Positions 27,582 to 58,411 of a stretch of 58,733 nucleotides of DNA are shown piece after piece. Numbering within the stretch: position 1 is the stretch's first letter; each line of letters opens with the position of its first letter. The translations under genes and the position numbers were made by a program. The stretch is from positions 1 through 58,733 of the forward strand of contig JAYEIZ010000160.1 in assembly GCA_034660355.1 (NCBI GenBank). Reading direction: 5' to 3'. This stretch comes from Nanobdellota archaeon. Its GTDB lineage: Archaea; Nanobdellota; Nanobdellia; Woesearchaeales; JACPBV01. The notes under the pieces were generated by a model that worked only from the letters and a program-made list of their open reading frames with translations, made no database searches and had not been told where the DNA came from.

Positions 27582-28163
27582 TTACCATCCTCCATTTAGA
27601 TCTATAGCATTCAGTATTTCAATCGTTGTAGCTTGTGTAATTTCACCTTTAAGACTTAGCTTATTTTTAATTATACTTTCATGTTTCATTACACAATCAA
27701 TAATTAAATTATCAAACTCATCAGGTGTAAACGTATGTTTAACGTAGTCATTACTATACCAAGTAGGTGTAGCACTTGAAGCATCTAAGTTACGCATTGA
27801 ACTAATAGAACTTTCACTAATAGAAAATGTTCCGTCAGTGCGTACAAGTCCTTTGTCTAACTCTGTTTTAGCTAGGTTAGATACTGTTGATAGTTTGGAT
27901 TGTTTAGCTTTATCTAACCTATCTTGCATAAACTCATCATACATAGTCTGATTAGATATACCCCAGTCAGTATCATAAGACAGAGTTCCTCCACCTATCC
28001 ATATATCAGGACTAGCTATATCTTCTATGACTTCGTGTGTAGCTATCCGAATATCAAACGCTCTTAAAGGTTTAGACATTCCTTTATCTGTTAAGATTAC
28101 CTCATCGGTATCTTGTAATAGATAGAGAACTTTCTTACTCTCTTTTTCTCTAATTATCTTCAT
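27582..28163 (-). CDS. Possible tail-fibre assembly/chaperone protein (193 aa)
   Basis: ATGA overlap with the stop of the fibre gene. Assignment rests on position only. Confidence 0.35.
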   Translation of the reverse strand: MKIIREKESKKVLYLLQDTDEVILTDKGMSKPLRAFDIRIATHEVIEDIASPDIWIGGGTLSYDTDWGISNQTMYDEFMQDRLDKAKQSKLSTVSNLAKTELDKGLVRTDGTFSISESSISSMRNLDASSATPTWYSNDYVKHTFTPDEFDNLIIDCVMKHESIIKNKLSLKGEITQATTIEILNAIDLNGGW

Positions 28164-30029: not shown

Positions 30030-31562
30030 TCATGTTTGTGTATTTTCAACAACAATTTCTAAAGTACCTGCTGTAGGTATAGCAGATGTAGCATCATTAG
30101 CTGTTCTAAATTCAACAGTTAATGTATCTCCTTTAATGTCGGTTAAACACATACCACCTTTCTGATTGTATACTATATCTGAAGTATCAATAACACCAAA
30201 AGGTATAAGAATATTTACACCATCTGTAATACGCAAACCAGCAACAGAGTTTCCAGAGAATGCTGTACCTACTTTAACAACAGCTTTACTAAGCCTAATC
30301 TTCCCTGCAGGTACTGGTAATGCACTACCTATACTGAATGTATTATTAACACTATCTGCAGTAACAGTAGCTTCACGATTAACTCCACCAGCATTTGCTG
30401 CAACATAATTAGCTACTGCTTTACAAGTAGGAAGCTCATCATCAACATCTGTTACAGTAGTAGCTATATTATCTACAGTAGCTCCAGCAGCAAATGTAAG
30501 AGTAGACAGTTTCATTCCTGAGTCAGACTCTACAACACCTGTACCTTTAGCATTAAGTTTAAGATCAATATTTGTATCAGTACCTACTGCTTCTAAGGTA
30601 AGCACATTACCTGTAGCAGATGGAGTAAATCTAAGATGATTGACTTGGTCAGCAACTTCTACTGTTTCAAATACTAAATCACCACCATCATCATATAGAT
30701 CTGTAACATAGCTAAATACTGGATCACTTGCATTAACTCCTGTAAGTACCTGATTATTTACACCTACAGCAGTAACAGATAATGCTCCAGTACCAGAGCC
30801 AATAATAACTCCATGATCTGTAGCAGTATTAATACCAGTACCACCATAAGGTACTGAGAGAGCTACTGAAGCTGAAACAATAACTGTATCATCAATAGCA
30901 AAACCTTCACCTGTCTCAACATTCAAAGTCTTACTTGATGTTATATTATCTGCAGTATCATCAAATAGTAAAGTTTCTCCAGTATATCTATTAACAGTAC
31001 AAGCAGTAATATTACCGCCATCAGAGGTTATTGTTAATACATCTGCTGCCCATGATGCACCTAGTCCAGTAACTGCTGCAATTAGTTCTGCAACTCCTGT
31101 ACCAGTTTCACCTGAAGTAAGGTCAATGTTTTTAGCTCCAACTACTGAATCTGTAATATTAGCAAATCTGGAAGTAGCTGCTTGTACATTAGTCAGTGCA
31201 ACAGTTACAGATGCTCCTGGCACACCCTGTGCTGAACCACCTGCTAATGCTCCACCAGTAACTACCATAAAACCACCACCATCTCCAGTAGTTGTAGTAG
31301 GTGTAGTATTAGCAGCAATCTCTAACTGTTTATCTGGGATGACAATCATCTCACCACCATAAAACTGTCCATCAATAGATACATCACCTGTAAAGTGAGC
31401 ATCTACTACTTGTAGATCTTTTGCCCTGAAATCTGCATAAGCATCTCCAGCATTATTACGTATTTCAATACCATCAGTTACAGATTTCAGAGCATTACCT
31501 CCAATACCTAATGTAACTTCGGTAGCTAAACCGTTAATATCATATTCTCTTATATTAGTCAT
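30030..31562 (-). CDS. Tail fibre/spike protein (510 aa)
   Basis: G/T/A/V-rich beta-type sequence. The C-terminal ~115 aa are homologous to the C-terminus of the 666-aa fibre ('TADSVNN.F.IG..LP...FSGNSVAG..ITDG.N......TPAIPTAG'). Confidence 0.6.
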   Translation of the reverse strand: MTNIREYDINGLATEVTLGIGGNALKSVTDGIEIRNNAGDAYADFRAKDLQVVDAHFTGDVSIDGQFYGGEMIVIPDKQLEIAANTTPTTTTGDGGGFMVVTGGALAGGSAQGVPGASVTVALTNVQAATSRFANITDSVVGAKNIDLTSGETGTGVAELIAAVTGLGASWAADVLTITSDGGNITACTVNRYTGETLLFDDTADNITSSKTLNVETGEGFAIDDTVIVSASVALSVPYGGTGINTATDHGVIIGSGTGALSVTAVGVNNQVLTGVNASDPVFSYVTDLYDDGGDLVFETVEVADQVNHLRFTPSATGNVLTLEAVGTDTNIDLKLNAKGTGVVESDSGMKLSTLTFAAGATVDNIATTVTDVDDELPTCKAVANYVAANAGGVNREATVTADSVNNTFSIGSALPVPAGKIRLSKAVVKVGTAFSGNSVAGLRITDGVNILIPFGVIDTSDIVYNQKGGMCLTDIKGDTLTVEFRTANDATSAIPTAGTLEIVVENTQT

Positions 31563-32036: not shown

Positions 32037-34037
32037 TTACCCTTTTGCTATAATCTTTACATTACCTGCTGTAGGTATTGCTGGAGTAACTCCGTCTGCT
32101 TCTACAAATTCAGCTTTCAATACTTTACCTTTAATATCTATAGTACTTCCAGAAGCATCTTGTTCATATACTGTATCTATAATATTCAATATACCAGAAG
32201 TTACAAGAGTATTTGTTCCATCAGTAATCTTTATACCTGCTACAGAGTTACCTGTAAATGCTACAGAGAATTTACTTTGAACACTACTCAGGAATACTGC
32301 ATCTACTACAGTAGGTAAAACTATACCAATATCAAAAATACTATTAACACTATCAGCTGTTATTGTTACATGTCTCTGGAAATTATCAACACTTCCAGCA
32401 GCAGTCTCTGCAGCTACTTGAGCTGTCTCTGCGTCTGTAGCACTATCTGATGCAGCAATAGCACTTAGAGCTGCTGCACTTGCACTAGCTGCAGCTTCTC
32501 CTGTAGCAGTAGGACTAAATGATGTAGAACGTACTTCTACAATATCACTCTTTGCCAACTCATAAGGGAATGTTGGATTAGGTGTATAGTTTGCTGTATG
32601 TTGTACCGCATCAAATACAATGATGTTTTCTAAGAAAAAGTCTGGAGATTGAGCTCCACCATAAAATTGCCCAATCTTAAAATCAACCGAGGTGCTTCTA
32701 GTTCCTGTCCCTGTAATAGTAGAACCCTTTTGAACTCCGTCAATAAAGAACCTACTAGCCCCAGCAGTAAAATCATAATTAAACTCAAACTCATAAGTAG
32801 TACCTGCAACGGGCGTATTCCAATAAAATAAAGATTCACCTATTAAACTACCAGAATCATCATAAGCTATAGCTCTGACATATCCATTTGTGTAATGATA
32901 AATACTAATCCAACTACTCACTCCTGTTCTTGTTGTACTGATAAAATATTGAGCTGTCGCTGGAATGCCAGAATAATTAAGATTAACTTTCAACCTAATA
33001 CAACCAATTTGGGCATTATCTATATTACCACTTCCAGAATATGTTAAACCTCTACCTGAAACAGCTCCTGTAAGGTCTAATGAGTTCCCTGTAATTACTG
33101 CTCCATTCAAAGCAGTACCTAGTAAACTACCACCGCCCCAGTTTAGATTAATATCATCTGTATACAAAGCACCGCATTGACTATCAACAGGGACTTCTTC
33201 TCCAAAGGTTAATCTTGTATCGCTTGTGCGTGTAAGTCTGCTTTTAGGTTCTTTGTGCCCATTCACAAAACAAGCTATATTATCTAAATCCGAAGCTAAT
33301 ACAAAAGGTGTATCAGTATAAGTTTCCCCTCCTGTTGCCTCCTCCTCGTGATAATTAACTACAATATTATTAGCAGATGCTTCAGCATCAACTGCACTTG
33401 CAGCTGCATTGGTTTCAGCAGTCTCAGCATTAGTTTCAGCTAATTGAGCAGCTATAGCACTAACACTAGAAGCGTTTGCTGCAGCTATTGCCTCACCTAC
33501 AGCTGTAGGTTTAAATGACATTGATCTAACTTCTACAATATCACCATTATTTAATGGAGTAGAGAATGATAATCTAGTATCTGAAGTACGAGTTAATTCA
33601 CTATCTGGTTTTTTATACCCATTTACAAAACAAGCAATATTCTTTGTATCTTGAGCTAATGTAAATGAAGTATCCACATAGGTTTCACCACCTGTAGCAG
33701 TTTCCTCAAGATAATCTATATCAACATTCTGAATACTAGCTTCACTAAAAGAGTCTGCTAACATAGCTGTATTAACTCGAATCTCTAGTGCAGATCCACT
33801 TGTAAATGCAAGAGCAGCAGTTCCATCAACACCTCTTTCACAAGTAAGAACATCTCCAGTTACATCTGTAACTTTTATGATTTCATGAAAACTATCTTCT
33901 TGTAAGGTAGCATAGAAATAATCGACTGCAGTTAAAGCAGGGAACCCAGATACATTATCTACTGTTATAGATGTATCTGTATCTGTGATATTCCCTATAA
34001 TAAAAGTAGCTGCATTATTTGAAAATTTAACAGGCAT
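32037..34037 (-). CDS. Tail fibre protein (666 aa) with duplicated module and an inserted concanavalin/LamG-like domain
   Basis: Conserved phage fibre N-terminus ('YFYATLQEDSFHEIIKVTDVTGDVLTCERGVDGT'). The module 'ATGGETY.DT.F.LA.D..NIACFVNG.K.P.S.LTRTSDTRL.F' occurs twice. The second copy is interrupted by ~215 aa with lectin-like features. Confidence 0.7.
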   Translation of the reverse strand: MPVKFSNNAATFIIGNITDTDTSITVDNVSGFPALTAVDYFYATLQEDSFHEIIKVTDVTGDVLTCERGVDGTAALAFTSGSALEIRVNTAMLADSFSEASIQNVDIDYLEETATGGETYVDTSFTLAQDTKNIACFVNGYKKPDSELTRTSDTRLSFSTPLNNGDIVEVRSMSFKPTAVGEAIAAANASSVSAIAAQLAETNAETAETNAAASAVDAEASANNIVVNYHEEEATGGETYTDTPFVLASDLDNIACFVNGHKEPKSRLTRTSDTRLTFGEEVPVDSQCGALYTDDINLNWGGGSLLGTALNGAVITGNSLDLTGAVSGRGLTYSGSGNIDNAQIGCIRLKVNLNYSGIPATAQYFISTTRTGVSSWISIYHYTNGYVRAIAYDDSGSLIGESLFYWNTPVAGTTYEFEFNYDFTAGASRFFIDGVQKGSTITGTGTRSTSVDFKIGQFYGGAQSPDFFLENIIVFDAVQHTANYTPNPTFPYELAKSDIVEVRSTSFSPTATGEAAASASAAALSAIAASDSATDAETAQVAAETAAGSVDNFQRHVTITADSVNSIFDIGIVLPTVVDAVFLSSVQSKFSVAFTGNSVAGIKITDGTNTLVTSGILNIIDTVYEQDASGSTIDIKGKVLKAEFVEADGVTPAIPTAGNVKIIAKG

Positions 34038-41150: not shown

Positions 41151-41555
41151 ATGAAAATTCTAAATCAATATACGAAAGAAGTTTTAACTGAAAATAACGG
41201 TAGAAATATGAGAGATACTGTTATTTTAGCTGTAATACAAAAAGTATCTTTAGAAGATGCTGACTTGCAGGGAGCAGATTATTTATGTAACGTAGATTTA
41301 CGAAATGTAAATTTATATAATGCTAATTTACAAGACATAGATTTTAGTAATACTGATTTAAGAGGAGCTGATTTACGCAGTACTAACTTACAAAATGCTA
41401 ATTTACAGGGTGCTGACTTGAGAGGAGCTGATTTACGGAGTGCACACTTATGGGATGCAAACTTGGTAAATGCTAATTTAGAAGGTGCTAAATTATATGG
41501 TGCTGATGTAAGAGGTACTATCTTATGTGATGATACATATCTCACTATCGACTAA
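41151..41555 (+). CDS. Pentapeptide-repeat protein 1 (134 aa)
   Basis: About 18 consecutive A(D/N)LxX units ('ADLQGADYLCNVDLRNVNLYNANLQDIDFSNTDLRGADLRSTNLQNANLQGADLRGADLRSAHL...'). Confidence 0.9.
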   Translation: MKILNQYTKEVLTENNGRNMRDTVILAVIQKVSLEDADLQGADYLCNVDLRNVNLYNANLQDIDFSNTDLRGADLRSTNLQNANLQGADLRGADLRSAHLWDANLVNANLEGAKLYGADVRGTILCDDTYLTID

Positions 41556-41887: not shown

Positions 41888-42691
41888 ATGAAGATACGAA
41901 ACAGATATACTAATGCAATTATATTCGAGAATGATAGCGATACTATGAGAACTACAGTTATTTTAGCTATATCAGCAAAAGTTAGTTTAGTGAGTGCATA
42001 CTTAGAGAATGTAAACTTGATAGGTGCTAATCTACAAGGAGCAGATTTGCGTAATGCCGATTTACGTGGAGCTAACTTTCATAAAGCTGATTTACATGGA
42101 GCTATTTTACGAGATATAGATGCTGAAAGAGCAAACTTAAAAGAAGTTAATCTATATAACGCAGATCTACATTGTGCAGACTTAGAAGAAGCTAATCTAA
42201 TAGGAGCAAACCTAATAGGAGCTAATTTACAAAGCATTAATTTAGAGGGTGCTAAATTACAAAATACTGATCTAAGAGAAGCTAATTTAGAGAATGCTGA
42301 CTTAGAACTGGCTAATTTACAACGTGCTAATTTATATAGAGCTAATTTATGGAATGCTATTTTGTGGTGTACCAACTTACATGAAGCTAATTTACATAAA
42401 GCTGACATACGAAATACTGACTTCCAAAATGCTAATTTACAGCATGCAAACTTCCGCAATACTAAAGGTGATAGCCAAGAGATAATAACATTTCAAATTA
42501 ACTATTATACTATAACTATCACAAAAGATATTTTTCAAATTGGGCATGAAAGTCATTCTATAAAAGAATGGAAAGAATTTACTGATAAAGAAATTCTAGC
42601 AATGGACGGTAAAGACGCACTCGACTTTTGGAAAATATATAAGTCCGTTTTGTTTGAAATACATGATCTAAACTTTAAATTAAACAAATAA
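41888..42691 (+). CDS. Pentapeptide-repeat protein 2 (267 aa) with a non-repeat C-terminal domain
   Basis: About 32 pentapeptide units, then an ~80-aa unrelated tail ('GDSQEIITFQINYYTITITKDIFQIGHESHSIKEWKEF...'). The N-terminal cap is similar to protein 1. Confidence 0.9.
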   Translation: MKIRNRYTNAIIFENDSDTMRTTVILAISAKVSLVSAYLENVNLIGANLQGADLRNADLRGANFHKADLHGAILRDIDAERANLKEVNLYNADLHCADLEEANLIGANLIGANLQSINLEGAKLQNTDLREANLENADLELANLQRANLYRANLWNAILWCTNLHEANLHKADIRNTDFQNANLQHANFRNTKGDSQEIITFQINYYTITITKDIFQIGHESHSIKEWKEFTDKEILAMDGKDALDFWKIYKSVLFEIHDLNFKLNK

Positions 42692-44132: not shown

Positions 44133-44741
44133 ATGATTAGAATTAAAAATATTAAAGGAAAAACTCTCTTTGAAGCTGATATAAATTCTCTAAAAGAATG
44201 TGTAGAATTGGCTGTTAAAAAGAAGATAAACCTTGAAGATGCTAATCTCGAGAGTGCAAACCTTGAAAAAGCAAATCTTGTAGGTGCAGAACTTAAAGGA
44301 GCTTATCTATATAAAGCAAGTCTTGAAAGAGCTGATCTTAATGAAGCTAATCTTGAAGGAGCTATTCTCGAAAGAGTTATTCTTAGGGGAGCTACTCTTG
44401 AATATGCAAACCTTATAGAAGCAAACCTTATAGACAGTAATTTTATAAGAGCAGACCTTAACGAAGTCGAGCTTGTAGGAGCTTGTCTAAATGGAAGCTG
44501 GCTTTGTGGTGCAAATCTTTACAAAGCTAATCTTGAGGGAGCTAGTCTTATAGGAGCTGATTTAGAAAGAGCAAACCTTTTTGGAACAAACTTTAATAAA
44601 ACTAATCTTTATAGGGCTGATTTCCGTAGAACAAATCTTAGAGAAGCAAGCCTTAAAGGAGCTTGTCTTGCAAGAACTGATTTTGAAGGAGCTATTCTTG
44701 CACGGGACTCAAATCAAATAGAGAAAGGAATAAATCAATGA
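44133..44741 (+). CDS. Pentapeptide-repeat protein 3 (202 aa)
   Basis: N-terminal cap 'IKNIKGKTLFEADINSLKECVELAVKKKINL', then about 31 A(N/D)LxX units. Confidence 0.9.
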   Translation: MIRIKNIKGKTLFEADINSLKECVELAVKKKINLEDANLESANLEKANLVGAELKGAYLYKASLERADLNEANLEGAILERVILRGATLEYANLIEANLIDSNFIRADLNEVELVGACLNGSWLCGANLYKANLEGASLIGADLERANLFGTNFNKTNLYRADFRRTNLREASLKGACLARTDFEGAILARDSNQIEKGINQ

Positions 44742-45134: not shown

Positions 45135-45416
45135 ATGAACGCCAAACAAAACCAACAGAATAAAGAAACTCTTTTACAATGCCAAATTAATTCACTTAGA
45201 CGAATAGAGCGAGAAGCAGGCTATCCCTATAAAAGTGATGACCTTAGCTTATTAGAGCAAGAAGCATATAACCAATGGCAGAAGAAAACAGAAGCTAGAG
45301 TTTATGGGTATCCACGATATATAATAGTATTACTATTAGCTTTACTAGGTAGCTTTGGGTTTCTTATAGGTTTACTTCTGCCTATTATTTTAGATTTATT
45401 TAATCAACTTATCTAA
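45135..45416 (+). CDS. Small C-terminally anchored membrane protein (93 aa)
   Basis: 'YIIVLLLALLGSFGFLIGLLLPIILDLF' hydrophobic C-terminus. Confidence 0.5.
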   Translation: MNAKQNQQNKETLLQCQINSLRRIEREAGYPYKSDDLSLLEQEAYNQWQKKTEARVYGYPRYIIVLLLALLGSFGFLIGLLLPIILDLFNQLI

Positions 45417-45425
45417 GGAAAGTAT

Positions 45426-45644
45426 ATGTCTTATCAGACAACTAATAATCTATTTGTATGTTGTATAATTATTTTATTACTATTATTTACTATAGCTATA
45501 GATATACAACATACGTCTATAACAGTTTTAGAAAAACATGTTGTAGTACTTAAACAAAGAATACAATCTCAACAAGAGTTTATTCTTTTAACAAACCAAC
45601 GCATTAATCAGGGGAATGAAAATGCAGCAAACATACACAGATAA
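45426..45644 (+). CDS. Small N-terminally anchored membrane protein (72 aa)
   Basis: 'LFVCCIIILLLLFTIAI' followed by a helical Q-rich tail. Confidence 0.5.
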   Translation: MSYQTTNNLFVCCIIILLLLFTIAIDIQHTSITVLEKHVVVLKQRIQSQQEFILLTNQRINQGNENAANIHR

Positions 45645-45868: not shown

Positions 45869-47629
45869 ATGGCTGATTCAGCTTACATAGATCAATACAA
45901 CATCGAAACTACATGGTCTAAGAGACAAGGTGTACGTATTGTGAAAGAAGAACTAGAAGGTAATATATCTATCACTAACGCTAGGGCGGTTAAAAGAGCT
46001 CTAGGACGATGTATTCAAGATTTTGATACCATTGACCAAGCATATGATCTATTCATGTTCTTGCTCTTCTCAGAGGATAGAGACATGCCTATACAATCTA
46101 TTGCTATGCAGTTAGGAATGCTTTGTACTACTGATAAAGTAAAAGCTTTTAGTAAAGGTATATATATAGTTAAAATGTGTGCAGAACTTACTGATCTGTA
46201 TCATTTAGATTCTCGTAAAGAAGGTGAAGACTTAGCATGGTATGTCTGCCCTAACTTTAAACTAGATAAAATAACTCGTAAGAGAGTTAAAGAACTACAG
46301 TTTCTTCCACCAATGAAAGTTATTCCAAGAGATTGGAATAGTAATACTGACGGTGGATGGGTACATGAAAACCAACATATTATGTTAGGTAAATCTATAG
46401 GTAAACATAATAAGTATCAAGCATATGATGTAATCAATAAGTTACAGAAAGTACCTTTTGAAATAGATGTAGATACTTATATGTTTGAAAAGAAGACTAA
46501 TCATAATATGAAGAAGAAACCTTATCTAAAAGTACTTAATAAATACTTAGGAGAAGAGTTCTACTTTGTATGGAGATATGACACTAGAGGACGTAGTTAT
46601 TCCTCTGGATACCATTTGAATATCCAGTCAGATGAGTACAGTAAAGCTTTATTATCTTTCGCTAATAAAGAAATGATAACTAATATAGATAATCTATATA
46701 TAGCTATAGCTGGTCATGCTGGTAAAGATAAGCTTACTTGGACAGAACGTATCAAGTGGGCTAAAAGTATAACTGATTTTAGTACTGTAGAATGGGAAGA
46801 GCCTATTCTAGGACGTAAAGCTGTACGAGCTCTTAATGATGCTCTACAGAGTAAGAAATCAGGGTATATGATGTCAGCTGATGCCACAAGTAGCGGTATT
46901 CAAATAATGGCAGCTTTATCAGGTTGTCTTGATACAGCTAAATTTACTAATATGATTGACCCGACTACACGAGTAGATGTTTATTCTGAAATGGTGAAAG
47001 CTATGAATGATAAACTGGATACTAAGGTTAATCGTAAAACACTCAAGAAATGTTTAATGACCTACTGCTATAACAGTAAAGCTACTCCTAAGAAATTGTT
47101 ATCTGAAGAACAATTAGAAGAGTTCTATGATAGTTTAGATGGATTACTTTCTGGAGCTCAGGATGTACTAGAAACTATTAATAGTGCATGGGATGATACA
47201 GCTACAGAACATTCATGGACTATGCCTGATGGACATAAAGTTATAGTGCCTGTAATAGAGTATCATGACATGGTGCTTGAAGATGAAGATTTAGGTGATA
47301 TACCTTTCAGATATTACTCTAAAACTCCATCAGATAACTATAGATCTCTCGGAGCTAACATATGTCATTCGGTGGATGCTTATATAGCTAGAGAAATGGT
47401 TAGAAGATGTGAATTTCAGTTAGTTCACATCCATGATGCGTATCTCTTTAGTCCTGACCATTTACAGGATGTAGCTAATATGTATCGAACTATTGTAGCT
47501 GAAATTGCTGACATGGATCTATTACAACATATACTTCGTGAAATTACTGGAGATAGTAATTATACATACTCGAAGTATACTGATGATCTATCTAGTAAAA
47601 TCTTACAAAGTGAATACATGCTATCTTAA
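45869..47629 (+). CDS. T7-like single-subunit RNA polymerase (N4 RNAPII-like middle-gene polymerase), single chain of 586 aa
   Basis: 'WRYDTRGRSYS' (T/DxxGR), motif A 'MMSADATSSGIQIMAALSG', motif B 'RKTLKKCLMTYCYNS', motif C 'VHIHDAYLF'. Confidence 0.85.
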   Translation: MADSAYIDQYNIETTWSKRQGVRIVKEELEGNISITNARAVKRALGRCIQDFDTIDQAYDLFMFLLFSEDRDMPIQSIAMQLGMLCTTDKVKAFSKGIYIVKMCAELTDLYHLDSRKEGEDLAWYVCPNFKLDKITRKRVKELQFLPPMKVIPRDWNSNTDGGWVHENQHIMLGKSIGKHNKYQAYDVINKLQKVPFEIDVDTYMFEKKTNHNMKKKPYLKVLNKYLGEEFYFVWRYDTRGRSYSSGYHLNIQSDEYSKALLSFANKEMITNIDNLYIAIAGHAGKDKLTWTERIKWAKSITDFSTVEWEEPILGRKAVRALNDALQSKKSGYMMSADATSSGIQIMAALSGCLDTAKFTNMIDPTTRVDVYSEMVKAMNDKLDTKVNRKTLKKCLMTYCYNSKATPKKLLSEEQLEEFYDSLDGLLSGAQDVLETINSAWDDTATEHSWTMPDGHKVIVPVIEYHDMVLEDEDLGDIPFRYYSKTPSDNYRSLGANICHSVDAYIAREMVRRCEFQLVHIHDAYLFSPDHLQDVANMYRTIVAEIADMDLLQHILREITGDSNYTYSKYTDDLSSKILQSEYMLS

Positions 47630-47638
47630 TACTATCTT

Positions 47639-47675
47639 GCAGACCTCTTTAATTAGAGGTCTGCTTATTTTTTTT
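47639..47675 (+). terminator. Strong rho-independent terminator
   Basis: gcagacctct-ttaatt-agaggtctgc: 10-bp stem, followed by ttatttttttt. Confidence 0.85.
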
Positions 47676-47942: not shown

Positions 47943-48206
47943 ATGCGTAAAGAACTAACTATAGAAGAATGGGAAGAAAAATTTATCCCTATATTTAATA
48001 CTCTCTTACCGCCACATAAGGAAGATTTTGATTTCCTTAACAAACAAGACCCTCACCACATATGGACAGGATCAGTTTCAGGTGATCAACTGGTAGTTAT
48101 TGAAGGATACCATTTATATAGTGAAGTTATGTATTTTATAACAAAGAACCCTTGGACTGAGGGTGAACAATACATGATACAAAATAAATTATTGGAGGAT
48201 GATTGA
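47943..48206 (+). CDS. Hypothetical protein (87 aa), paralogue of 48432-48710
   Basis: Shares 'ELTI.EWEE.F.PI.NT', 'KQDPHH.WT', 'EGYHL', 'FITKNPWT.G.QY' with the 92-aa ORF. Confidence 0.55.
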   Translation: MRKELTIEEWEEKFIPIFNTLLPPHKEDFDFLNKQDPHHIWTGSVSGDQLVVIEGYHLYSEVMYFITKNPWTEGEQYMIQNKLLEDD

Positions 48207-48431: not shown

Positions 48432-48710
48432 ATGTTTAGAGAACTAACTATCAAAGAATGGGAAGAAGAGTTTCTCCCTATAAAGAATACTATTTATAAT
48501 GAAGAGATAGATTATTTTGAACCTTATAGCTCAGAATGGGATTTCATTAGAAAACAAGATCCTCACCATGTGTGGACAGTTGTAGATACCGATGACGGAT
48601 TAGTAATTAATGAAGGTTACCATTTATGTAACAGAGTAATGCACTTTATAACAAAGAATCCTTGGACTAAAGGTACACAGTATCAAATAGATTATGAAGG
48701 AGATAATTAA
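48432..48710 (+). CDS. Hypothetical protein (92 aa), paralogue of 47943-48206
   Basis: See 47943-48206. Confidence 0.55.
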   Translation: MFRELTIKEWEEEFLPIKNTIYNEEIDYFEPYSSEWDFIRKQDPHHVWTVVDTDDGLVINEGYHLCNRVMHFITKNPWTKGTQYQIDYEGDN

Positions 48711-49528: not shown

Positions 49529-50548
49529 ATGTTTGAAGTTAATATTAAACAACTCATACAAGCTCTCATAGCAGATCTTAAAGCGAATATCACTTCTATG
49601 GTAGTATCTAGTCCTGGAGCTGGAAAGAGTGATTGTATACGTCAAATAGCTAAAGAGTATGGTCTCAAAGTAATTGATCTCCGTGTGAGTCAATGTGAGC
49701 CTGTAGACATGCAGGGATTTCCTGGAGTAACTCCAGAAGGACGTATGACTTTCCATGTGCCAGAATACTTTCCATTAGAAGGTGACCCTATCCCTAAAGG
49801 ATATAATGGATGGTTGTTATTCTTGGATGAGTTTAATTCAGGTAATAAACAAACTGAAGCAGCATGTTATAAACTGATATTAGATAGAGCTGTATATCAA
49901 CATAAATTACACCCTAACTGTCGTATTGTTGCTGCAGGTAATCTAACCACAGATAAAGCTATTGTGAATACAATGTCTACTGCAACAGCATCTAGGCTCA
50001 CACATTATAAACTGTATGTAGATCATAATGATTGGATAGATTGGGCATATAAGAATAATATAGATAATCGTATTATTTCTTTTATTAAATTCAAACCTGA
50101 AATACTTCATAAGTTTAATCCTAAATCTACTGAAGTAACCTTTCCAAGTCCCAGAACTTGGGAGTTCGTTTCTAAAATAATTGAAGATATAAAAGATATA
50201 GATGACCTGACACAGATACGTATTGCAGGTACGATTGGGGAAGGTGCAGCTGTAGAGTTTACAGGATACTGTAAAATATTTAGAAACCTACCTACTATTG
50301 AAGAAATACTTCATACACCAACTTTGTGGAGAATACCTATAGAACCTAGTGAAGTTTATGCAATTACTACTATGTTAGCTAGTAATACTACTCCTCAAAA
50401 TATATCTACAATATTCAAATCTATAGATAGATTGCCTATAGAGTTTCAGTTAATTACTTTGAAAGATATTCATAAGAAAAATCCTGCACTTGCAGAATAT
50501 CCTGAAATTAAAGTATGGCAGATAAATAACGCATCAAAAGTGTATTAA
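49529..50548 (+). CDS. MoxR-type AAA+ ATPase (N4 gp24-like)
   Basis: Walker A 'SSPGAGKSD', Walker B 'WLLFLDEFN', sensor 'RIVAAGN'. Confidence 0.85.
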   Translation: MFEVNIKQLIQALIADLKANITSMVVSSPGAGKSDCIRQIAKEYGLKVIDLRVSQCEPVDMQGFPGVTPEGRMTFHVPEYFPLEGDPIPKGYNGWLLFLDEFNSGNKQTEAACYKLILDRAVYQHKLHPNCRIVAAGNLTTDKAIVNTMSTATASRLTHYKLYVDHNDWIDWAYKNNIDNRIISFIKFKPEILHKFNPKSTEVTFPSPRTWEFVSKIIEDIKDIDDLTQIRIAGTIGEGAAVEFTGYCKIFRNLPTIEEILHTPTLWRIPIEPSEVYAITTMLASNTTPQNISTIFKSIDRLPIEFQLITLKDIHKKNPALAEYPEIKVWQINNASKVY

Positions 50549-50561
50549 CAGGAGAAATAAA

Positions 50562-51233
50562 ATGATTTCATACATATTCGGAGCATTCGCACTAGGACTT
50601 TATATTCTTATACTATTTTTATTCGTAAGAAGTTTGTTCAAAGCATACACTAAGTTTTATAACAATTTTATTGGGGTTGGGGAGGATGTTATGGATTTTA
50701 TAGCCCTAGTTAATAATGGTGATATAGAAAAAATAAAAGAAACATATACATTTGAGAATGGTATCCCAAAAGTATTTGAAAATAATCAGGCAGAATGTAT
50801 TTCCTGCTGTAAAGTAGATGCTCATAAAATTATGATAGTGTATAAAATTGACAAAACTGGAGGTTATGGAACTGCTGTTGTAGGCACAATTTCAGGTACT
50901 TCTATATCCTTCGGAAAACCTCATATATTTGTGTGCGGTAATATGCAACACATATCTTGCTGTCAATCGGACAATAATAAAGTCGTTATAGTTTATAGAG
51001 ATATAGATATTAGTCTTTATATCAAAACTGTGGTGGGCAATGTTATTGGAAAATCAATCACATTCGGAACTCCAGTAATGTTTAGAACTCTTTGTACAGG
51101 TGAGATTTCTTGTCGTCAAGTATCTAATAATGAGGTTGTTATAACTTGCCAAGATGTGGGGAATATAAGAGGCGGAGATACTATTGCATGTATTGTTATA
51201 GGAACTTCAATCACATATAGACTCAATAGATAA
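50562..51233 (+). CDS. Membrane-anchored protein with three copies of the tail-fibre propeller repeat (223 aa)
   Basis: N-terminal TM 'ISYIFGAFALGLYILILFLFV'. Then 'LVNNGDIEKIKETYTFENG' (compare fibre 'AVNSGDIEKVKGTVFEGG') and three 51-aa units with 'ISCC..D..K...VY' and 'GYGTAVVGTISGTSISFG'. Confidence 0.65.
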   Translation: MISYIFGAFALGLYILILFLFVRSLFKAYTKFYNNFIGVGEDVMDFIALVNNGDIEKIKETYTFENGIPKVFENNQAECISCCKVDAHKIMIVYKIDKTGGYGTAVVGTISGTSISFGKPHIFVCGNMQHISCCQSDNNKVVIVYRDIDISLYIKTVVGNVIGKSITFGTPVMFRTLCTGEISCRQVSNNEVVITCQDVGNIRGGDTIACIVIGTSITYRLNR

Positions 51234-51250
51234 TGATGAGGAAATCTGAA

Positions 51251-51889
51251 ATGTCTAAATATAAAATAGAAGATATAAATAATAATATGATTTTTACAGC
51301 TGAAACTAAGACTTTTAAAGACTGTGTTGAGCTTGCAGTTAAGAAAGGAATTAATCTTGAAAGAGCTGACTTTAGATGTGTTAATCTTAAAGGAGCAAAT
51401 CTTAGAGAGGCTAACTTAGAAAGAGCTAATTTATATGGAGCAGAACTTCAAAAAGCTAATCTTATAGGAGTAAACTTTGAAAGAGCTTATCTTGTAAATG
51501 CTGAACTTGAAGGAGCAAATCTCAGAAAAGCAAACCTTGCAAGAAGTAATATTCATAGTACAAATCTTGCAAGAGCAAATCTTAAAAATACTAATCTTGA
51601 AGAAGTATGTCTTTATGAAGCTAATCTTGAAGAAGCTTATTTTGCAATGTCAAATCTTTATAGAGCTGACCTTAGAAGAGCCAATCTTAGAGGAGCTAAT
51701 CTATATGAGGCAAATCTTGAAAGTGTTAATTTTGGGAATGCTGATCTTAGAGGAGTAAATCTTTTTGGAGCAAATCTTAAAGGAGCTAATTTTATAGATG
51801 CTAATCTTAGAGGATCTAAGATTATAAAAGCAAGCCTTGAAGAAGCAACCTATACAGGGGCAGATCTTACAGGAGTTATTTTTAGATGA
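51251..51889 (+). CDS. Pentapeptide-repeat protein 4 (212 aa)
   Basis: Cap 'YKIEDINNNMIFTAETKTFKDCVELAVKKGINL', then about 33 pentapeptide units. ATG 51251 lies 8 nt after GAGGA; the track start is 51233. Confidence 0.9.
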   Translation: MSKYKIEDINNNMIFTAETKTFKDCVELAVKKGINLERADFRCVNLKGANLREANLERANLYGAELQKANLIGVNFERAYLVNAELEGANLRKANLARSNIHSTNLARANLKNTNLEEVCLYEANLEEAYFAMSNLYRADLRRANLRGANLYEANLESVNFGNADLRGVNLFGANLKGANFIDANLRGSKIIKASLEEATYTGADLTGVIFR

Positions 51890-52500
51890 CTAAATATACA
51901 TTAGAAATAAAACCATGTGAATGTTTTGAATCTCCTAGAGAGTGGGATAATCTAGGTACAGTAGTAGCTAGTCATGGTAAATATAGTATGTCTGATGAGG
52001 GAGAAAGCAATCCATATTGGGGTGAAATAGGTAGCATGATACAAGACTTCATTGCATATATTTATAACAGAGACTGTTACGGTGCATATCCGTCTTGTGA
52101 TGAACTAGATAATGAAAATGTAATGGAAAGGTTTGTAGACAATAATTATATCTACCTGCCAATTTACATGTATGAGCATTCAAGTATAGCTCTTAACACG
52201 ACAGGGTTCTCATGTAAATGGGATTCAGGATTACTTGGGTATATTTATGTAAGTAAGAAAAAAATACGTGAATGGTTTAGTATAAAAAACATTACTAAGA
52301 AAATTCGGAAACAAGTTTTAATACAACTTGTTCATGAAATTGAGGCTTATTCAAATTATTGCAATGGTGAACTCTATCGCTACATTGTAAAAGATGAGAC
52401 GGGTGAGGTTATTGATGATTGTGGAGGATTCTTCACAGAAGAAAATGCTGAATCAGAAGGGAAAAGATGTATTCAATATTGCATAGAGCATGCACTTTAA
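51886..52500 (+). CDS. Conserved phage protein (204 aa), unknown function
   Basis: ATGA overlap with the pentapeptide gene. Motifs 'ESPREWDNLGT', 'LPIYMYEHSSIAL', 'KWDSGLLGYIYV' and 'GELYRYIV' recur in many phage/plasmid ORFs as I recall, but I cannot name the family. Confidence 0.5.
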   Translation: MTKYTLEIKPCECFESPREWDNLGTVVASHGKYSMSDEGESNPYWGEIGSMIQDFIAYIYNRDCYGAYPSCDELDNENVMERFVDNNYIYLPIYMYEHSSIALNTTGFSCKWDSGLLGYIYVSKKKIREWFSIKNITKKIRKQVLIQLVHEIEAYSNYCNGELYRYIVKDETGEVIDDCGGFFTEENAESEGKRCIQYCIEHAL

Positions 52501-52523
52501 TTTAATTAAATGGAGTTATTAAA

Positions 52524-52736
52524 ATGACAAAAGTACATGTAACAGTACAAGAAATATATAATTCTGTTAGAGAAGTAGAACTTACAGAAGATATTATATC
52601 AAAAACAGATTTATTTGCAGCTGCTCTTAATACAGAAGATGAAATAGAACTTCATTTTGTAAGAACAAATTACGAAAAAGGTATAGTACATATCCATTAC
52701 CCAGAAGGAAAAGAAAATACAAATAAGATTATATAA
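52524..52736 (+). CDS. Hypothetical protein (70 aa)
   Basis: ORF with RBS GGAG. Confidence 0.45.
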   Translation: MTKVHVTVQEIYNSVREVELTEDIISKTDLFAAALNTEDEIELHFVRTNYEKGIVHIHYPEGKENTNKII

Positions 52737-52749
52737 AGGAATTATTAAA

Positions 52750-53088
52750 ATGACAAAAACGTATAAAATAAAAGATATTAATGGAAAAATTCTTTTTGAA
52801 GCAGAAGCTGAAAGTCTTAAAGAATGTATAGAGTTTGCTGTTTGGGGAAGTGTCAATCTTAATAAGGCAAATCTTGAAAATACTAATCTTACAGGAGCTA
52901 ATCTTATAGGTGCAGAACTTAAAGGAGCGAATCTTAAAAATGCTATTCTTGTAGAAGCTAACCTTAGTTATGCAGATCTACGTGATGCTGACCTTAGATG
53001 TACATATATTAAAGGAACAAACTTTACAGAAGCAAATCTAAGAAATGCTAACTATGAAGGAGCATCTCTTTGGAGAGATAAATCTTAA
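52750..53088 (+). CDS. Pentapeptide-repeat protein 5 (112 aa)
   Basis: Cap 'YKIKDINGKILFEAEAESLKECIEFAVWGSVNL', then about 14 pentapeptide units. Confidence 0.9.
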   Translation: MTKTYKIKDINGKILFEAEAESLKECIEFAVWGSVNLNKANLENTNLTGANLIGAELKGANLKNAILVEANLSYADLRDADLRCTYIKGTNFTEANLRNANYEGASLWRDKS

Positions 53089-53092
53089 ATAA

Positions 53093-54199
53093 ATGAAAGG
53101 ATATTATCTAATGTCATTTGATGCCCTAGAAACTAAACTACTTAAAGCTAAGATTGAACTGATGTCTAAATCAGTATTTATATCTACAATAGCTTTAAGT
53201 ATTAAACATATCATATCTGATAAAGTATCTACTGCAGCTACTAATGGAAATAAAATTTGGTATAATCCAGATTTTATAAAAGATTTATCTATTCCAGAAT
53301 TTGTAGGACTTATAGCTCATGAGTGTTGGCATATAGCTTTTCTACATTTATCTCGTGGAAAAGGTAAAGATCCTGAAAGATATAATGAAGCAGGAGATTA
53401 TGTAATTAATAATATGCTTACTAGTTCCCGTTTTAAAATACCTCCTGGAGGATTAGTAGATAAGAAGTATAAGGATATGACTACTGAGCAAGTATATGAT
53501 ATTCTCATGGCTATGCCTAAAACTCCAGAAAATATGATGAAAGATTTAACTGAAGCACCAGAAGAAAATGTATCAGAACAAAATATTAAAGCTACTATTG
53601 TACGTGCCAATACTCAAGCTACATTAGCAGGGCAGAAACCAGGAGAATTACCTGAAGAAATCTCACGATTAATAGATGAGTTACTTGATCCTAAATTACC
53701 GTGGGAACAGTTACTACACAAATTTATTGATAATACTATAAAGACTGATTTTAATTGGAACAGACGTAATAGAAGATATAAAGAGTATCTTCCTAGCAGA
53801 TGTGATGGAGGATTATCACATCTAACCTTCGCTATTGATACAAGTGGATCTGTAAGTGATAAAGCAGTACAAGAACTGCTCAGTGAAATTCAATACATCC
53901 AAGATACGTTCTGTCCAGAGAGAATGACTATCATAGATTGTGATACTAAAATTAATCATATTCATGAAGTAGACCAAAGCACTAGAATATCTGAGCTAGA
54001 ATTTATAGGCGGAGGAGGTACAAGATTCCACCCAGTTGTTAATTATGTCAATGACCATCCTACACAAGCTCTAATATACTTTACAGACCTATATGGAGAT
54101 AGTGATGTAGGTGAAGTAGGTTATCCTATTTTATGGATCTGTAATTCAGATGCAGATCCTGCAAAAGTAGGTGAAACTATTTATTTAGAAGAGAGTTAA
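53093..54199 (+). CDS. vWA-domain protein with N-terminal HExxH metallopeptidase-like domain (N4 gp25-like)
   Basis: 'IAHECWH' (HExxH), 'FAIDTSGSVS' (MIDAS DxSxS). The alternative start ATG 53111 has better RBS spacing (AAAGGA). Confidence 0.8.
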   Translation: MKGYYLMSFDALETKLLKAKIELMSKSVFISTIALSIKHIISDKVSTAATNGNKIWYNPDFIKDLSIPEFVGLIAHECWHIAFLHLSRGKGKDPERYNEAGDYVINNMLTSSRFKIPPGGLVDKKYKDMTTEQVYDILMAMPKTPENMMKDLTEAPEENVSEQNIKATIVRANTQATLAGQKPGELPEEISRLIDELLDPKLPWEQLLHKFIDNTIKTDFNWNRRNRRYKEYLPSRCDGGLSHLTFAIDTSGSVSDKAVQELLSEIQYIQDTFCPERMTIIDCDTKINHIHEVDQSTRISELEFIGGGGTRFHPVVNYVNDHPTQALIYFTDLYGDSDVGEVGYPILWICNSDADPAKVGETIYLEES

Positions 54200-55641: not shown

Positions 55642-57705
55642 ATGATAACAACAGCAATTCTAATCAAAGAAACTGCTATGGATCAAGATACCATAGATAC
55701 GTATTATATAAACCCTCTAGTAGCTAAAGGAATATCTAAAGATTCTATAGTAGTTTTACCTTTATTATATAATAATAATAATAAAATACCTGCTAATACA
55801 GGTAAAGCTTACTTAGATAAATTATCCCCTAAAATTCCAGATACAGTAACTAAACTAGTTATAGCAGATAGTCCGTATTTTAAATACATTACTGGATGTG
55901 CAAAAATAAAAGATGCTCATGGTATAACTGTTCAAGGTAAACATACAGGGTATGAAAAATATACATGTGCATATGTACCTAATTACAGATCTATATTCAG
56001 ACAACCTGCTAATGAAGATCTAATTGTATTAGGAATTAAAGCTATTACAAATGATGATAATAGTTCAGACCTTGTAATTGATTATGAAGAGTATGGTTTC
56101 AAACATGGATCTGATAGAGAAATATTAGATCAGTTGTTTCAGCACCCAGAATTGACTGTAGACATCGAAACTACAGGTTTGGATATATCTAGTTCAATAA
56201 TATCTATATGCTTCTGTTGGAGTAAATCTGAAGGTGTTGCTTTAGATATATCTATTAATGGAGGAGCTTACCTCAAACAGTTCTTTGAACAGTATACAGG
56301 TAAACTAATCTTCCATAAAGCATTGTTTGATGTAAAGCTTCTTATACGTTGGTTATGGATGTCTTCTGAATCAGATTTCAAAGGTATGAATGAAGGACTT
56401 CAACATTTCCGTAATGTTGATGACACTATGATATTAGCTTACCTAGAGAAGAACTCTACTACTCTAATATCATTGGGACTAAAAGAACTAGCTTTAGAGT
56501 TCATAGGTAAATATGCAATAGATACATCTGATTTATCTAAATATAGTAAAGCAGAGATTCTTAAATATAATCTACTTGATGGACTAGCTACATTCTATTT
56601 ATGGGAAAAATTTGCCCATCAGAGGACTTCTGAAGCATATACTACCATATTTAGACCAAGCATACCAGTACTGCTCAAATGTATGCTTGTAGGGCTTCCT
56701 ATGGATCATTCTAAAGTGCAAGATGCACATAAAATGCTTCAAGCCAAGAATGATGTATTTCTAAAACAATTAGAAGAAAGTACATATATAAAAGAATTTA
56801 CTAAGATTCTACGTACAGAGGAATGTATTAAAGCAAACAAGAAATTAAAGAAAATTAGGAAAACTCCATTAGATTTTAAAGATAAAAACTTTAATCCAAA
56901 TAGTCATGATCAAATAGGGAAACTATTACATGACTATCTAAAGTTACCTATACTGGAGACAACAGATACAGGAGCTCCTTCAACAGGAGGAAAAATACTT
57001 AAAGATCTAATAAACCATACAAAAGATCCAGATATTTTAATAATATTGGAAGCTATAATTGGTATAGCTGAGATAACTAAAATAGATGGCACATTCATTG
57101 AAGCATTAATGAAAGAAAAACATTTCCTTCATGGAAGTTTAAATCTATGTACTACACAAAGTGGTAGACTATCTTCATCAGATCCTAATCTTCAAAACCT
57201 ACCTAGTAAAGGTGTAATGGGTAAACTGATAAAGAGTTGTATTGTAGCTCCTACAGATTTAGATGGTGGATTACATATCAACAGAGAAAAATTATTATGT
57301 ATAATCAACTCCTACAAACAACCTTTGGAAAAATTACTAACTGAATTATATAATTTAGAGGATTCTTGTACAGAAGAAGAATATTATTCCATAATTACTC
57401 GCATAACACAACACCCAGCATGTACACAACAATTATTATATAATCTTAATAACTGCGTGCAGTTTAAAACAGGATCGTGGTTATTCGTAGGAGCTGATTT
57501 TGCAGCTTTAGAAGAAAGAATTGGAGCTATCCTAAGCAATGACCCAAATAGGGTCAAAGTGTACACAGATGGATATGATTCACATTCTTTGAGAGCTCAT
57601 AAATACTTTGCAGATAAAATGCCTGATATAGTACAGGCTATTGGAAAAGCTGAAACAGCTACTGAATTTTGGATAGATGATAACGGTAATTACTGTTGCA
57701 AGTAA
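55642..57705 (+). CDS. Family A DNA polymerase, N-terminal gene (3'-5' exonuclease + thumb + palm motif A)
   Basis: Exo I 'TVDIETTGL', Exo II 'FHKALFDVKLL', Exo III 'YNLLDGLATFYL', 'TQSGRLSSSDPNLQNLP', motif A 'LFVGADFAALEERI'. The ORF stops before motif B. Confidence 0.85.
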   Translation: MITTAILIKETAMDQDTIDTYYINPLVAKGISKDSIVVLPLLYNNNNKIPANTGKAYLDKLSPKIPDTVTKLVIADSPYFKYITGCAKIKDAHGITVQGKHTGYEKYTCAYVPNYRSIFRQPANEDLIVLGIKAITNDDNSSDLVIDYEEYGFKHGSDREILDQLFQHPELTVDIETTGLDISSSIISICFCWSKSEGVALDISINGGAYLKQFFEQYTGKLIFHKALFDVKLLIRWLWMSSESDFKGMNEGLQHFRNVDDTMILAYLEKNSTTLISLGLKELALEFIGKYAIDTSDLSKYSKAEILKYNLLDGLATFYLWEKFAHQRTSEAYTTIFRPSIPVLLKCMLVGLPMDHSKVQDAHKMLQAKNDVFLKQLEESTYIKEFTKILRTEECIKANKKLKKIRKTPLDFKDKNFNPNSHDQIGKLLHDYLKLPILETTDTGAPSTGGKILKDLINHTKDPDILIILEAIIGIAEITKIDGTFIEALMKEKHFLHGSLNLCTTQSGRLSSSDPNLQNLPSKGVMGKLIKSCIVAPTDLDGGLHINREKLLCIINSYKQPLEKLLTELYNLEDSCTEEEYYSIITRITQHPACTQQLLYNLNNCVQFKTGSWLFVGADFAALEERIGAILSNDPNRVKVYTDGYDSHSLRAHKYFADKMPDIVQAIGKAETATEFWIDDNGNYCCK

Positions 57706-57715
57706 AGGATATTTA

Positions 57716-58411
57716 ATGAAACAAATAACTAAAAAAGAATACATTGTAGGTATAATTAATTCTATAGCTAAGAAATATCCTGAACTTCGTACATCTTCAA
57801 AGAGCCCATCGTTTGCAATGCAATATAATGGAACTGCTTTTACTTTACATAAAAAAAGTGGTTTTCCTATGGAACAAGCTAAATCTATATATAAATCTTA
57901 CCATGAGCTGTATAAAGTTACAGGAGAATTTAATAAAGATAATGAAAGATTTATGACTGAGCATGGTTATATAGAATGTGCTTTTGGACTTAGACTACGT
58001 ACACCTATAATAGGTAGATGTGTATTAGGTAACTCTAAGACTCCATATGTAGCTGCTGCTGAGGTCAGGAGTGCAAATAATAGTGTTACACAGTCATGGG
58101 GAATGTTATTAAACCGTGCTGCTATAGCTACTAATAATCGAATAATTGAAGCTGGATTAGAGAATGATATTTTACCAGTTAATCTAATACATGATGCTGA
58201 ATATTTCATAGTTAGAAATGACCCTAAAATTATTAAGTTTCTTAATGATACACTTATAGAAGAAATGGAATGGAATGATTATGATAAAATTAGATCTAAA
58301 GATGTTCCAATGACTGCAGAGCTTGAAATTGGTAAAGACTGGAGTAAACAAATAACACTTAAAAATTATATATCTGAAGAAGAAATAATAAAACAAATAG
58401 CTACATTATAG
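57716..58411 (+). CDS. Family A DNA polymerase, C-terminal gene (fingers motif B + palm motif C)
   Basis: Motif B 'RTSSKSPSFAMQYNG', motif C 'VNLIHDAEYF'. Has its own RBS (AAAGGA 8 nt before ATG 57716); the track start 57677 overlaps the upstream gene. Confidence 0.8.
   Translation: MKQITKKEYIVGIINSIAKKYPELRTSSKSPSFAMQYNGTAFTLHKKSGFPMEQAKSIYKSYHELYKVTGEFNKDNERFMTEHGYIECAFGLRLRTPIIGRCVLGNSKTPYVAAAEVRSANNSVTQSWGMLLNRAAIATNNRIIEAGLENDILPVNLIHDAEYFIVRNDPKIIKFLNDTLIEEMEWNDYDKIRSKDVPMTAELEIGKDWSKQITLKNYISEEEIIKQIATL

Follow-up and report, generated by a model that had tools for sequence, protein, structure and literature searches.

A putative membrane-anchored, three-bladed paralogue of the tail-fibre propeller in an accessory island of an uncultured N4-like phage

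We analysed a stretch of 58,733 nucleotides of contig JAYEIZ010000160.1 (assembly GCA_034660355.1, deposited as Nanobdellota archaeon; positions 1 to 58,733, hereafter the window), and we focus here on a plus-strand gene at 50562-51233 that encodes 223 aa plus a stop codon and reads as a predicted transmembrane (TM) anchor, a linker, a segment resembling the neck of a tail fibre, and three propeller blades. Its parent is the minus-strand gene at 28160-29974 for a putative tail fibre or receptor-binding protein of 604 aa, recognised from its translation, a hidden Markov model (HMM) of its repeat unit, AlphaFold2 and Foldseek, in which an N-terminal fibre motif and a neck lead to a seven-bladed propeller (units 29434-28391), with a small C-terminal domain at the end. 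We refer to the two as the paralogue and the fibre. An earlier note on this DNA had described an open reading frame (ORF) of 223 aa at 50562-51233 with a clear N-terminal TM helix, and on both points it was accurate: the coordinates are exact, the best 19-residue Kyte-Doolittle mean is 2.53, and AlphaFold2 models a helix.

From about residue 41 onward, the paralogue is a collinear copy of part of the fibre. BLASTP aligned paralogue residues 43-219 with fibre residues 155-330 at E=9e-50 (90/177 residues identical, or 51%, with one gap), far beyond chance, so that the repeat similarity that the earlier note had reported holds under statistical alignment, and blastn found the two genes alike at E=2.5e-16. 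A codon alignment placed the homology boundary at approximately residue 41, from where the paralogue is collinear with fibre residues 151-333. The best-conserved part follows directly upon this boundary: residues 41-69 (50682-50768, plus strand) are homologous to the pre-repeat or neck segment of the fibre, with 72% DNA identity and 12 of 19 identical residues over a 19-codon core (VMDFIALVNNGDIEKIKET versus VGDFVAAVNSGDIEKVKGT), including a common motif GDIEK[IV]K. The copy of the pre-repeat segment that had been noticed by eye is thus real.

The remainder consists of three consecutive units of the fibre's repeat family, each exactly 51 aa long and in the same period, as had been claimed. With a unit HMM for which 202 unrelated metagenomic proteins supplied 1998 units, P1 (residues 70-120; 50769-50921), P2 (residues 121-171; 50922-51074) and P3 (residues 172-222; 51075-51227), all on the plus strand, reached 62.1 bits (i-E 2e-21), 58.9 bits (i-E 2e-20) and 29.2 bits (i-E 4e-11), respectively, P3 being the most degenerate, while the first six fibre units reached 81-94 bits and the seventh 61. 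A six-frame scan of the window returned exactly 10 units, 7 in the fibre and 3 in the paralogue, with no extra degenerate blades downstream of the paralogue and no remnants elsewhere in the window. Upon comparing all 10 units pairwise, a check that the earlier note had proposed, we obtained 27-61% protein and 47-67% DNA identity between paralogue and fibre units: P1 is 61% identical to the first fibre unit F1 in protein and 67% in DNA, P2 is 31-51% and P3 27-45% identical to the fibre units in protein, and the three paralogue units are mutually 22-39% identical. The 75-80% DNA identity per unit reported from a spot comparison was an overestimate, as values of 69-82% are found for the first six fibre units among themselves, and the best local blastn segments between paralogue and fibre show 68-73% identity, with 79% over 38 nt only. 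Conservation thus drops from the neck segment and P1 toward P3, and the short motifs ascribed to the units are kept unevenly: ISCC is present in units 1 and 2 but reads ISCR in unit 3, and GYGTAVVGTISGTSISFG is present in unit 1 but not in units 2 and 3. The beta-strand core and its hydrophobic pattern are retained in all three units.

In the AlphaFold2 model of the paralogue, the three units are three four-stranded blades, the second and third with a short fifth strand; the mean predicted local distance difference test (pLDDT) score is 84.9, with most 10-residue blocks of the blades averaging 88-97; in the fibre repeat region, most 10-residue blocks across the blades exceeded 95. With the paralogue as the Foldseek query, all top matches were propellers, led in the PDB by the six-bladed fucose lectin AAL (E=1e-3, TM-score 0.42, 12% identity) and followed by sialidases, with G-beta, Arp2/3 and kelch proteins also present. 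For the fibre, the matches began at E=2e-9 and comprised integrin alpha, G-beta, seven- and six-bladed lectins and sialidases. By these models, the 51-aa units are beta-propeller blades.

The repeat family, one of marine phage tail fibres, is very large, with 3629 representative proteins at E<=1e-3 (HMMER, 1.84 billion representatives), occurrences in at least 120 IMG/VR contigs, and only 10 contigs of metagenome-assembled genomes among 185,579 species genomes. Its only cultured example is gp49 of the Lentibacter cobavirus ICBM2, encoded among genes for tail fibres and their assembly, and a search of GenBank phages with the fibre as query found only this protein and one marine single-cell virus; in the search for related loci, the fibre query matched by its N-terminal motif only. 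The number of detectable units is 7 in 79 of 148 complete family ORFs, 6 in 24 and 12-14 in 28, indicating that family members almost always form one or two propellers of 7 or 14 blades. At least two family ORFs, often adjacent, are carried by 45 of 120 IMG/VR loci (L007-L126), and paralogous propeller fibres in one phage are therefore common in the family. The labels PF18050 and 'X protein' on the fibre and its homologues were discarded as spurious, being weak partial matches summed over repeats.

Several lines of sequence evidence trace the paralogue to the fibre of its own genome. The resident fibre is its best match by far, reaching 159 bits where the runner-up among 203 family proteins reaches 120; the two share the neck motif; both carry the SCC blade variant, which occurs at least twice in only 2 of the 202 other family proteins fetched; and the GC content at third codon positions is genome-like in both genes, suggesting that both are long-term residents. 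Hence, the paralogue arose in this lineage by partial duplication of the resident fibre gene, comprising the neck and the first three of seven blades, and the copy gained a new N-terminal TM helix and came to lie in an insertion hotspot of the replication block, described below. Over 153 codons of the alignment, synonymous sites are near saturation (pS=0.63, pN=0.35, dN/dS ~0.34); together with the unit DNA identity of 47-67%, this makes the copy even older than the earlier note supposed when it called it an old, diverged paralogue rather than a recent duplication. The longest exact DNA run between the two genes is 15 nt, at an overall DNA identity of 50-68%, compared to a longest run of 65 nt within the fibre. 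This latter run is an exact internal repeat at a 459-nt offset, equal to three units and thus of the same module size as the paralogue. With the first six fibre units 67-82% identical to one another, it points to gene conversion of recent date within the fibre gene or to the duplication of a three-unit segment.

By our own calculation, the chance of 180 stop-free random codons at 33% GC is ~1e-6. As the frame stayed open at near-saturated pS, with dN/dS ~0.34, a strong ribosome-binding site and a preserved strand pattern, the paralogue is probably functional and under purifying selection, with a binding surface that has changed.

The N-terminus sets the paralogue apart from the fibre. Residues 2-22 (ISYIFGAFALGLYILILFLFV; 50565-50627, plus strand) are uncharged and strongly hydrophobic, and AlphaFold2 models residues 2-36 as a single long helix; among 178 repeat-bearing ORFs from 120 viral contigs, the maximum Kyte-Doolittle mean was 2.01, found at internal positions only. 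The paralogue is thereby predicted, from both hydrophobicity and AlphaFold2, to have one N-terminal TM helix and with it the membrane location that characterises exclusion proteins. We found no source for the TM segment in the window by blastn, and the N-terminal 78 aa as a lone query had no database match; the first 40 residues, anchor included, are thus without a detectable source. The helix is followed by a basic juxtamembrane segment (residues 23-36, RSLFKAYTKFYNNF; 50628-50669, plus strand), in which R23, K27 and K31 lie within nine residues after the helix, while no charged residue precedes it. By the positive-inside rule, the full-length paralogue is predicted to be N-out/C-in, its blades facing the cytoplasm from the inner membrane. 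We considered and rejected the possibility of a signal peptide or lipoprotein: the hydrophobic stretch is 21 residues long, and there is no basic N-region, AXA site, signal-peptidase site or lipobox cysteine.

The start of the gene is well marked and may not be the only one. A Shine-Dalgarno sequence AGGAG (50550-50554, plus strand) lies 7 nt before the ATG at 50562 and just past the stop codon (50546-50548) of the preceding ATPase gene, so that the ATG stands 13 nt past that stop, and the stop codon of the paralogue abuts the next gene (51233-51889), indicating tight operon packing. Reading the sequence directly, we also found an internal GGAGG followed by a 5-nt spacer and an ATG at Met44 (50681-50693, plus strand), a candidate second start that would yield a soluble product of 180 aa. 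Only 2 of the 304 internal in-frame ATGs of the window have so strong a ribosome-binding site, and the other one is probably a true gene start. The Met44 site is made from rare codons, namely GGG (10% of Gly codons) twice and GAG (25% of Glu codons), and Met44 itself lies three residues past the homology boundary. The gene thus has two in-frame candidate starts, ATG 50562 with AGGAG and ATG 50691 with GGAGG, an arrangement that we compared with the S105/S107 style of phage lambda. From these signals, it is plausible that a soluble 180-aa form, starting where the fibre-derived segment begins, is made beside the anchored form. A holin label for the paralogue was rejected, as no lysis genes lie nearby.

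We looked for counterparts of this architecture and found none. Pfam and PHROG scans of the paralogue matched no family; among GenBank phages, neither the 5.5-kb region in megablast nor the paralogue in tblastn found a match; a search of 5.8 billion proteins gave 55 matches, none with an N-terminal TM helix; none of the 178 motif-bearing viral ORFs has such a helix; and peptide scans of JGI metagenome contigs and GTDB genomes found no orthologue. In the HMMER search, the best 150 of 3629 matches were all long fibres except the query itself, and weaker short orthologues may stand lower down. One other contig carries the paralogue, Logan SRR26901924, which is 100% identical over 4466 bp and is the same phage, not an independent lineage. 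Likewise, the pairing of fibre and paralogue that the earlier note had suggested seeking in related phages was not found. The membrane-anchored, free-standing three-blade form is a singleton so far.

The genome around it is that of a phage. A partial minus-strand ORF at 1-2952, cut by the left edge of the window after 984 open codons, is matched by phrog_2206, the N4-type virion RNA polymerase, and there are further matches to RNA polymerase phrog_2051/2166, portal phrog_1216 and capsid phrog_1357. On the strength of this virion RNA polymerase, a second N4-type RNA polymerase, and N4-type portal and capsid proteins, the phage is N4-like (Schitoviridae-like), marine and uncultured; of the ~14 kb by which the 73-kb contig exceeds the window, much is explained by the virion RNA polymerase. 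The paralogue lies on the plus strand between an RNAPII-like RNA polymerase gene (45869-47629) and the DNA polymerase gene (55642-57705), whereas the minus strand carries the genes for fibre, terminase, portal and capsid; it is ~20 kb from the fibre gene, in inverted orientation. Its placement among middle genes by the earlier note agrees with this replication block, which is middle-gene-like and on the strand opposite to the structural genes. Because it shares strand and block with the polymerases, the known N4 transcription programme would have the paralogue expressed before the late structural genes.

Within this block, the paralogue belongs to a cluster that relatives do not have. To its left lies a conserved MoxR-like ATPase gene (phrog_1297, E=3e-115; 49529-50548, plus strand), 60-73% identical in relatives, and to the right lies a plus-strand gene for a metallopeptidase-like and VWA protein (DUF2201; Pfam PF13203 and PF09967; 53093-54199). 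The 2.5 kb in between (50562-53088, plus strand) form an accessory island of five genes, in the order paralogue, pentapeptide-repeat protein (218 aa), 204-aa phrog_6186 protein, 70-aa ORF and pentapeptide-repeat protein (112 aa), which is absent between the same flanks in relatives. In the related loci L003, L004 and L127 there is no island between the ATPase and VWA genes, with the VWA gene directly after the ATPase in L003 (7059-7109) and L127, while in L130 the gap (6134-6988) holds an IS110-like transposase gene (Pfam PF02371). As the gap is empty in three relatives and transposase-bearing in a fourth, the ATPase/VWA junction (50548-53093 in the window) is an insertion hotspot in this phage group and the paralogue is its cargo. 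We considered an integrin-like functional link of the propeller to the nearby VWA gene and take their proximity as coincidence, since the relatives have the VWA gene without the paralogue.

Other features of the window bear on its duplication history and on its fibres. Five plus-strand pentapeptide-repeat paralogues (41151-41555, 41888-42691, 44133-44741, 51233-51889 and 52750-53088) are 34-50% identical and scattered over the early/middle block, an expansion unusual for a ~73-kb phage, and two of them lie inside the island; pentapeptide-repeat proteins are often DNA mimics. Downstream of the RNA polymerase gene, which is followed by a terminator-like hairpin (47639-47664), two small plus-strand ORFs (47943-48206, 87 aa; 48432-48710, 92 aa) are paralogous at 55% identity, and just upstream of it two adjacent small plus-strand ORFs (45135-45416, 93 aa; 45426-45644, 72 aa) each contain a strongly hydrophobic segment. 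The DNA polymerase is encoded by two overlapping plus-strand ORFs (55642-57705, 687 aa; 57677-58411, 244 aa) that both match DNA polymerase PHROGs; the relative L003 has a single 822-aa ORF, and the split in the window could come from a frameshift, a programmed split or an assembly error. In the tail module, two neighbouring minus-strand proteins (30030-31562, 510 aa; 32037-34037, 666 aa) have a 128-aa segment in common at 42% identity, and the larger one also matches a PHROG of tail-fibre N-termini; several fibre-like proteins are probably present in this phage. A minus-strand ORF of 193 aa (27582-28163) overlaps the stop codon of the fibre gene by 4 nt and stands where a gene for fibre assembly or a fibre chaperone is usually found, with only weak matches to PHROGs without assigned function.

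Taken together, the paralogue is a lineage-specific accessory phage gene for a predicted membrane protein, born from the gene of a receptor-binding protein. What its product does can be proposed only tentatively. The three-blade protein would be made in the early or middle phase, before the late structural genes, and the full-length form would insert N-out/C-in such that the blades hang on the cytoplasmic face of the inner membrane, while a second start at Met44 may add a free cytoplasmic form of 180 aa. A three-blade chain by itself cannot form a closed ring, so it probably pairs to a six-blade, lectin-like ring or docks on another protein. If some of the fibre's ligand specificity survives in the fragment and is put to use within the infected cell, the fragment could bind the receptor glycan, its lipid-linked precursor or the export machinery at the inner membrane, whereupon less receptor would reach the cell surface, with less superinfection and less loss of progeny on infected cells and debris as a result. 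We regard such interference with receptor biogenesis or export through a retained fibre specificity as the most likely function, though with low confidence, and the fuller scenario, in which a lytic phage made a fragment of its own receptor-binding protein into an early inner-membrane 'receptor trap' that lowers receptor display from inside, as unlikely. The earlier note had proposed that the fragment masks the receptor on the envelope. This is improbable, as the blades are predicted to be cytoplasmic and an inner-membrane anchor cannot reach a receptor on a Gram-negative surface; to our knowledge, all known N4-like phages infect Gram-negative bacteria. Of the versions of the idea that involve receptor binding, the only plausible one left is that the fragment intercepts the receptor, or its lipid-linked precursor, at the inner membrane.

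A number of observations weigh against a receptor-directed role, or against the reading of the gene on which it builds. The family loop D-x-G-N-S-x-Y-G-T-A is kept in P1 only, the GNSxYGTA part being degenerate in P2 (DISLYIKT), and unit scores drop from 62 to 29 bits; with the loop confined to P1 and both P2 and P3 degenerate, the fibre's ligand specificity may be lost. The family is almost strictly 7- or 14-bladed, and a three-blade piece may fold or bind otherwise; the confidence of AlphaFold2 for the fragment may be inherited from full-length homologues in the alignment. The composition has drifted to AT-rich codons (more I, K and N, less G and A) and the net charge has moved from -5 to +3, which fits relaxed constraint. 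The predicted topology is drawn from a rule of thumb and not from a trained predictor, and no orthologue was found in which the anchored architecture recurs. Finally, all of this concerns one uncultured phage.

Some of these same observations would be expected if the paralogue were functional in a role apart from the receptor, with the half-propeller serving as a protein-binding scaffold at the inner membrane, together with other island proteins or with a host membrane complex. The strongly diverged surface, the reversed charge and the loss of the loop motif from blades 2 and 3 all fit this idea, as do the predicted cytoplasmic orientation, the tight linkage to a pentapeptide-repeat gene of the same island, and the fact that propellers are common interaction platforms, among them the Foldseek matches G-beta, Arp2/3 and kelch; yet no partner has been identified and motif loss alone sets the scaffold apart from receptor interference, and we consider it doubtful. 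That the gene is instead a decaying relic in a tolerant hotspot, open only because it has not yet been inactivated or used only for its small TM part, seems unlikely to us: its singleton status, the stepwise degeneration of units from P1 to P3, the shift to AT-rich codons and a duplication-prone genome with five pentapeptide paralogues and other duplicated pairs could all be read in this way, but a frame of 223 codons that is open despite pS=0.63, a dN/dS of ~0.34, two strong ribosome-binding sites of which one is built from rare codons, and a hydrophobic core pattern kept in every blade argue for selection.

A role nearer to the parent gene would be that of a helper or regulator of fibre assembly, in which the neck and blade 1 pair with nascent fibre chains for membrane holding, timing or as a folding template. 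Conservation is indeed highest in the neck and blade 1 and decays toward the C-terminus, an open three-blade fragment with free edges might pair with a folding propeller, and the cytoplasm is where fibres fold. The gene, however, is 20 kb away from that of the fibre and in a different block that is transcribed earlier, the small gene at 27582-28163 already sits in the usual fibre-chaperone position, and the 148 complete family ORFs of the 120 viral loci, as well as all close relatives, do without such a partner, making this a distinctly unlikely role. Very unlikely, in our view, is an anti-defence decoy, that is, an early partial copy that soaks up a host immune sensor of the fibre propeller. 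Residence in an accessory island of the early/middle block beside pentapeptide-repeat proteins, and a cytoplasmic location suited to an intracellular sensor, would agree with it, whereas a decoy should keep the recognised surface, of which 51% identity is left with blades 2 and 3 degenerate; moreover, no defence system is known to sense this propeller family, and the membrane anchor would have no clear purpose. The proposal of the earlier note that the paralogue serves as a recombination donor for host-range switching of the fibre is hardly credible and we reject it. Although donor and recipient would be of the same repeat family and in the same genome, the longest exact run of 15 nt and the unit identity of 47-67% leave little to recombine, exchange between inverted copies 20 kb apart would invert or break the genome, and neither recombinase sites nor a template/variable repeat pair were seen. 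A diversity-generating retroelement or an invertible, shufflon-type cassette was likewise set aside, as divergence between the two copies is too great and the ORFs examined showed neither a reverse transcriptase nor an invertase, a dedicated search for these enzymes not being part of the analysis.

Comparison with known systems helps to place the gene. With the 51-aa-repeat propeller family, including ICBM2 gp49, the paralogue shares the blade unit, the neck segment and the SCC variant, but it has three blades instead of 7 or 14, a TM helix in place of the N-terminal fibre shaft and no C-terminal tip domain, it lies in the replication block and not in the tail module, and the loop motif is gone from two of its three blades. 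The nearest structural analogy is to few-blade chains that need association to close a ring, as known from RSL of Ralstonia and BambL of Burkholderia, with AAL as their single-chain relative; these lectins, however, belong to another repeat family (12% identity) and are soluble, secreted proteins with two blades per chain that form trimers. T5 Llp, phi80/N15 Cor, T4 Imm and Sp, and P22 SieA resemble the paralogue in being small, lineage-specific accessory genes with predicted membrane products, and the paralogue, like them, is expected before the late genes and could act on the phage's own entry route. It has no sequence or family match to any of them, though, and Llp and Cor reside in the outer membrane, whereas the paralogue is predicted to face the cytoplasm. 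We know of no case among Llp, Cor, Imm, Sp and SieA in which the exclusion protein derives from the phage's own receptor-binding protein, and our literature search found no phage exclusion protein of such origin and nothing relevant on propeller fibres in N4-like phages. Closer in the action proposed here are Iap of Pseudomonas phage D3 and the Gtr systems, in which inner-membrane phage proteins change the display of the phage's own glycan receptor; these lack homology to the paralogue, are enzymes or enzyme inhibitors and not receptor-binding copies, and are known from temperate phages. In concept, the nearest likeness is to retroviral Env and the endogenous env genes Fv-4 and enJSRV, where the cell itself makes a virus-derived copy of the receptor-binding protein, which ties up the receptor so that later entry is blocked, albeit through the eukaryotic secretory pathway and without homology, while the domain of the paralogue is predicted on the cytoplasmic side.

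The value of the finding is limited by its basis in a single uncultured phage, with no orthologues found. Exclusion and receptor-modifying phage genes are usually orphans without traceable origin. Here, the origin can be read: a piece of the phage's own receptor-binding protein was joined to a membrane anchor and moved to an early/middle accessory hotspot. Were the paralogue to act as a receptor trap, bacterial viruses would have a counterpart to the Env-mediated receptor interference of retroviruses, and partial duplication of a receptor-binding gene with capture of a TM anchor would be a new route to exclusion genes. If its product still binds the fibre's ligand, this would be the first case known to us in which a phage employs, within the infected cell, a copy of the protein that binds its receptor, and the soluble Met44 form could be used as a probe for finding the receptor. 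If it does not, the gene would represent a natural partial propeller, three of seven blades, that was kept as a gene, and as such it would bear on how propellers evolve from blade fragments and how such fragments are tolerated.

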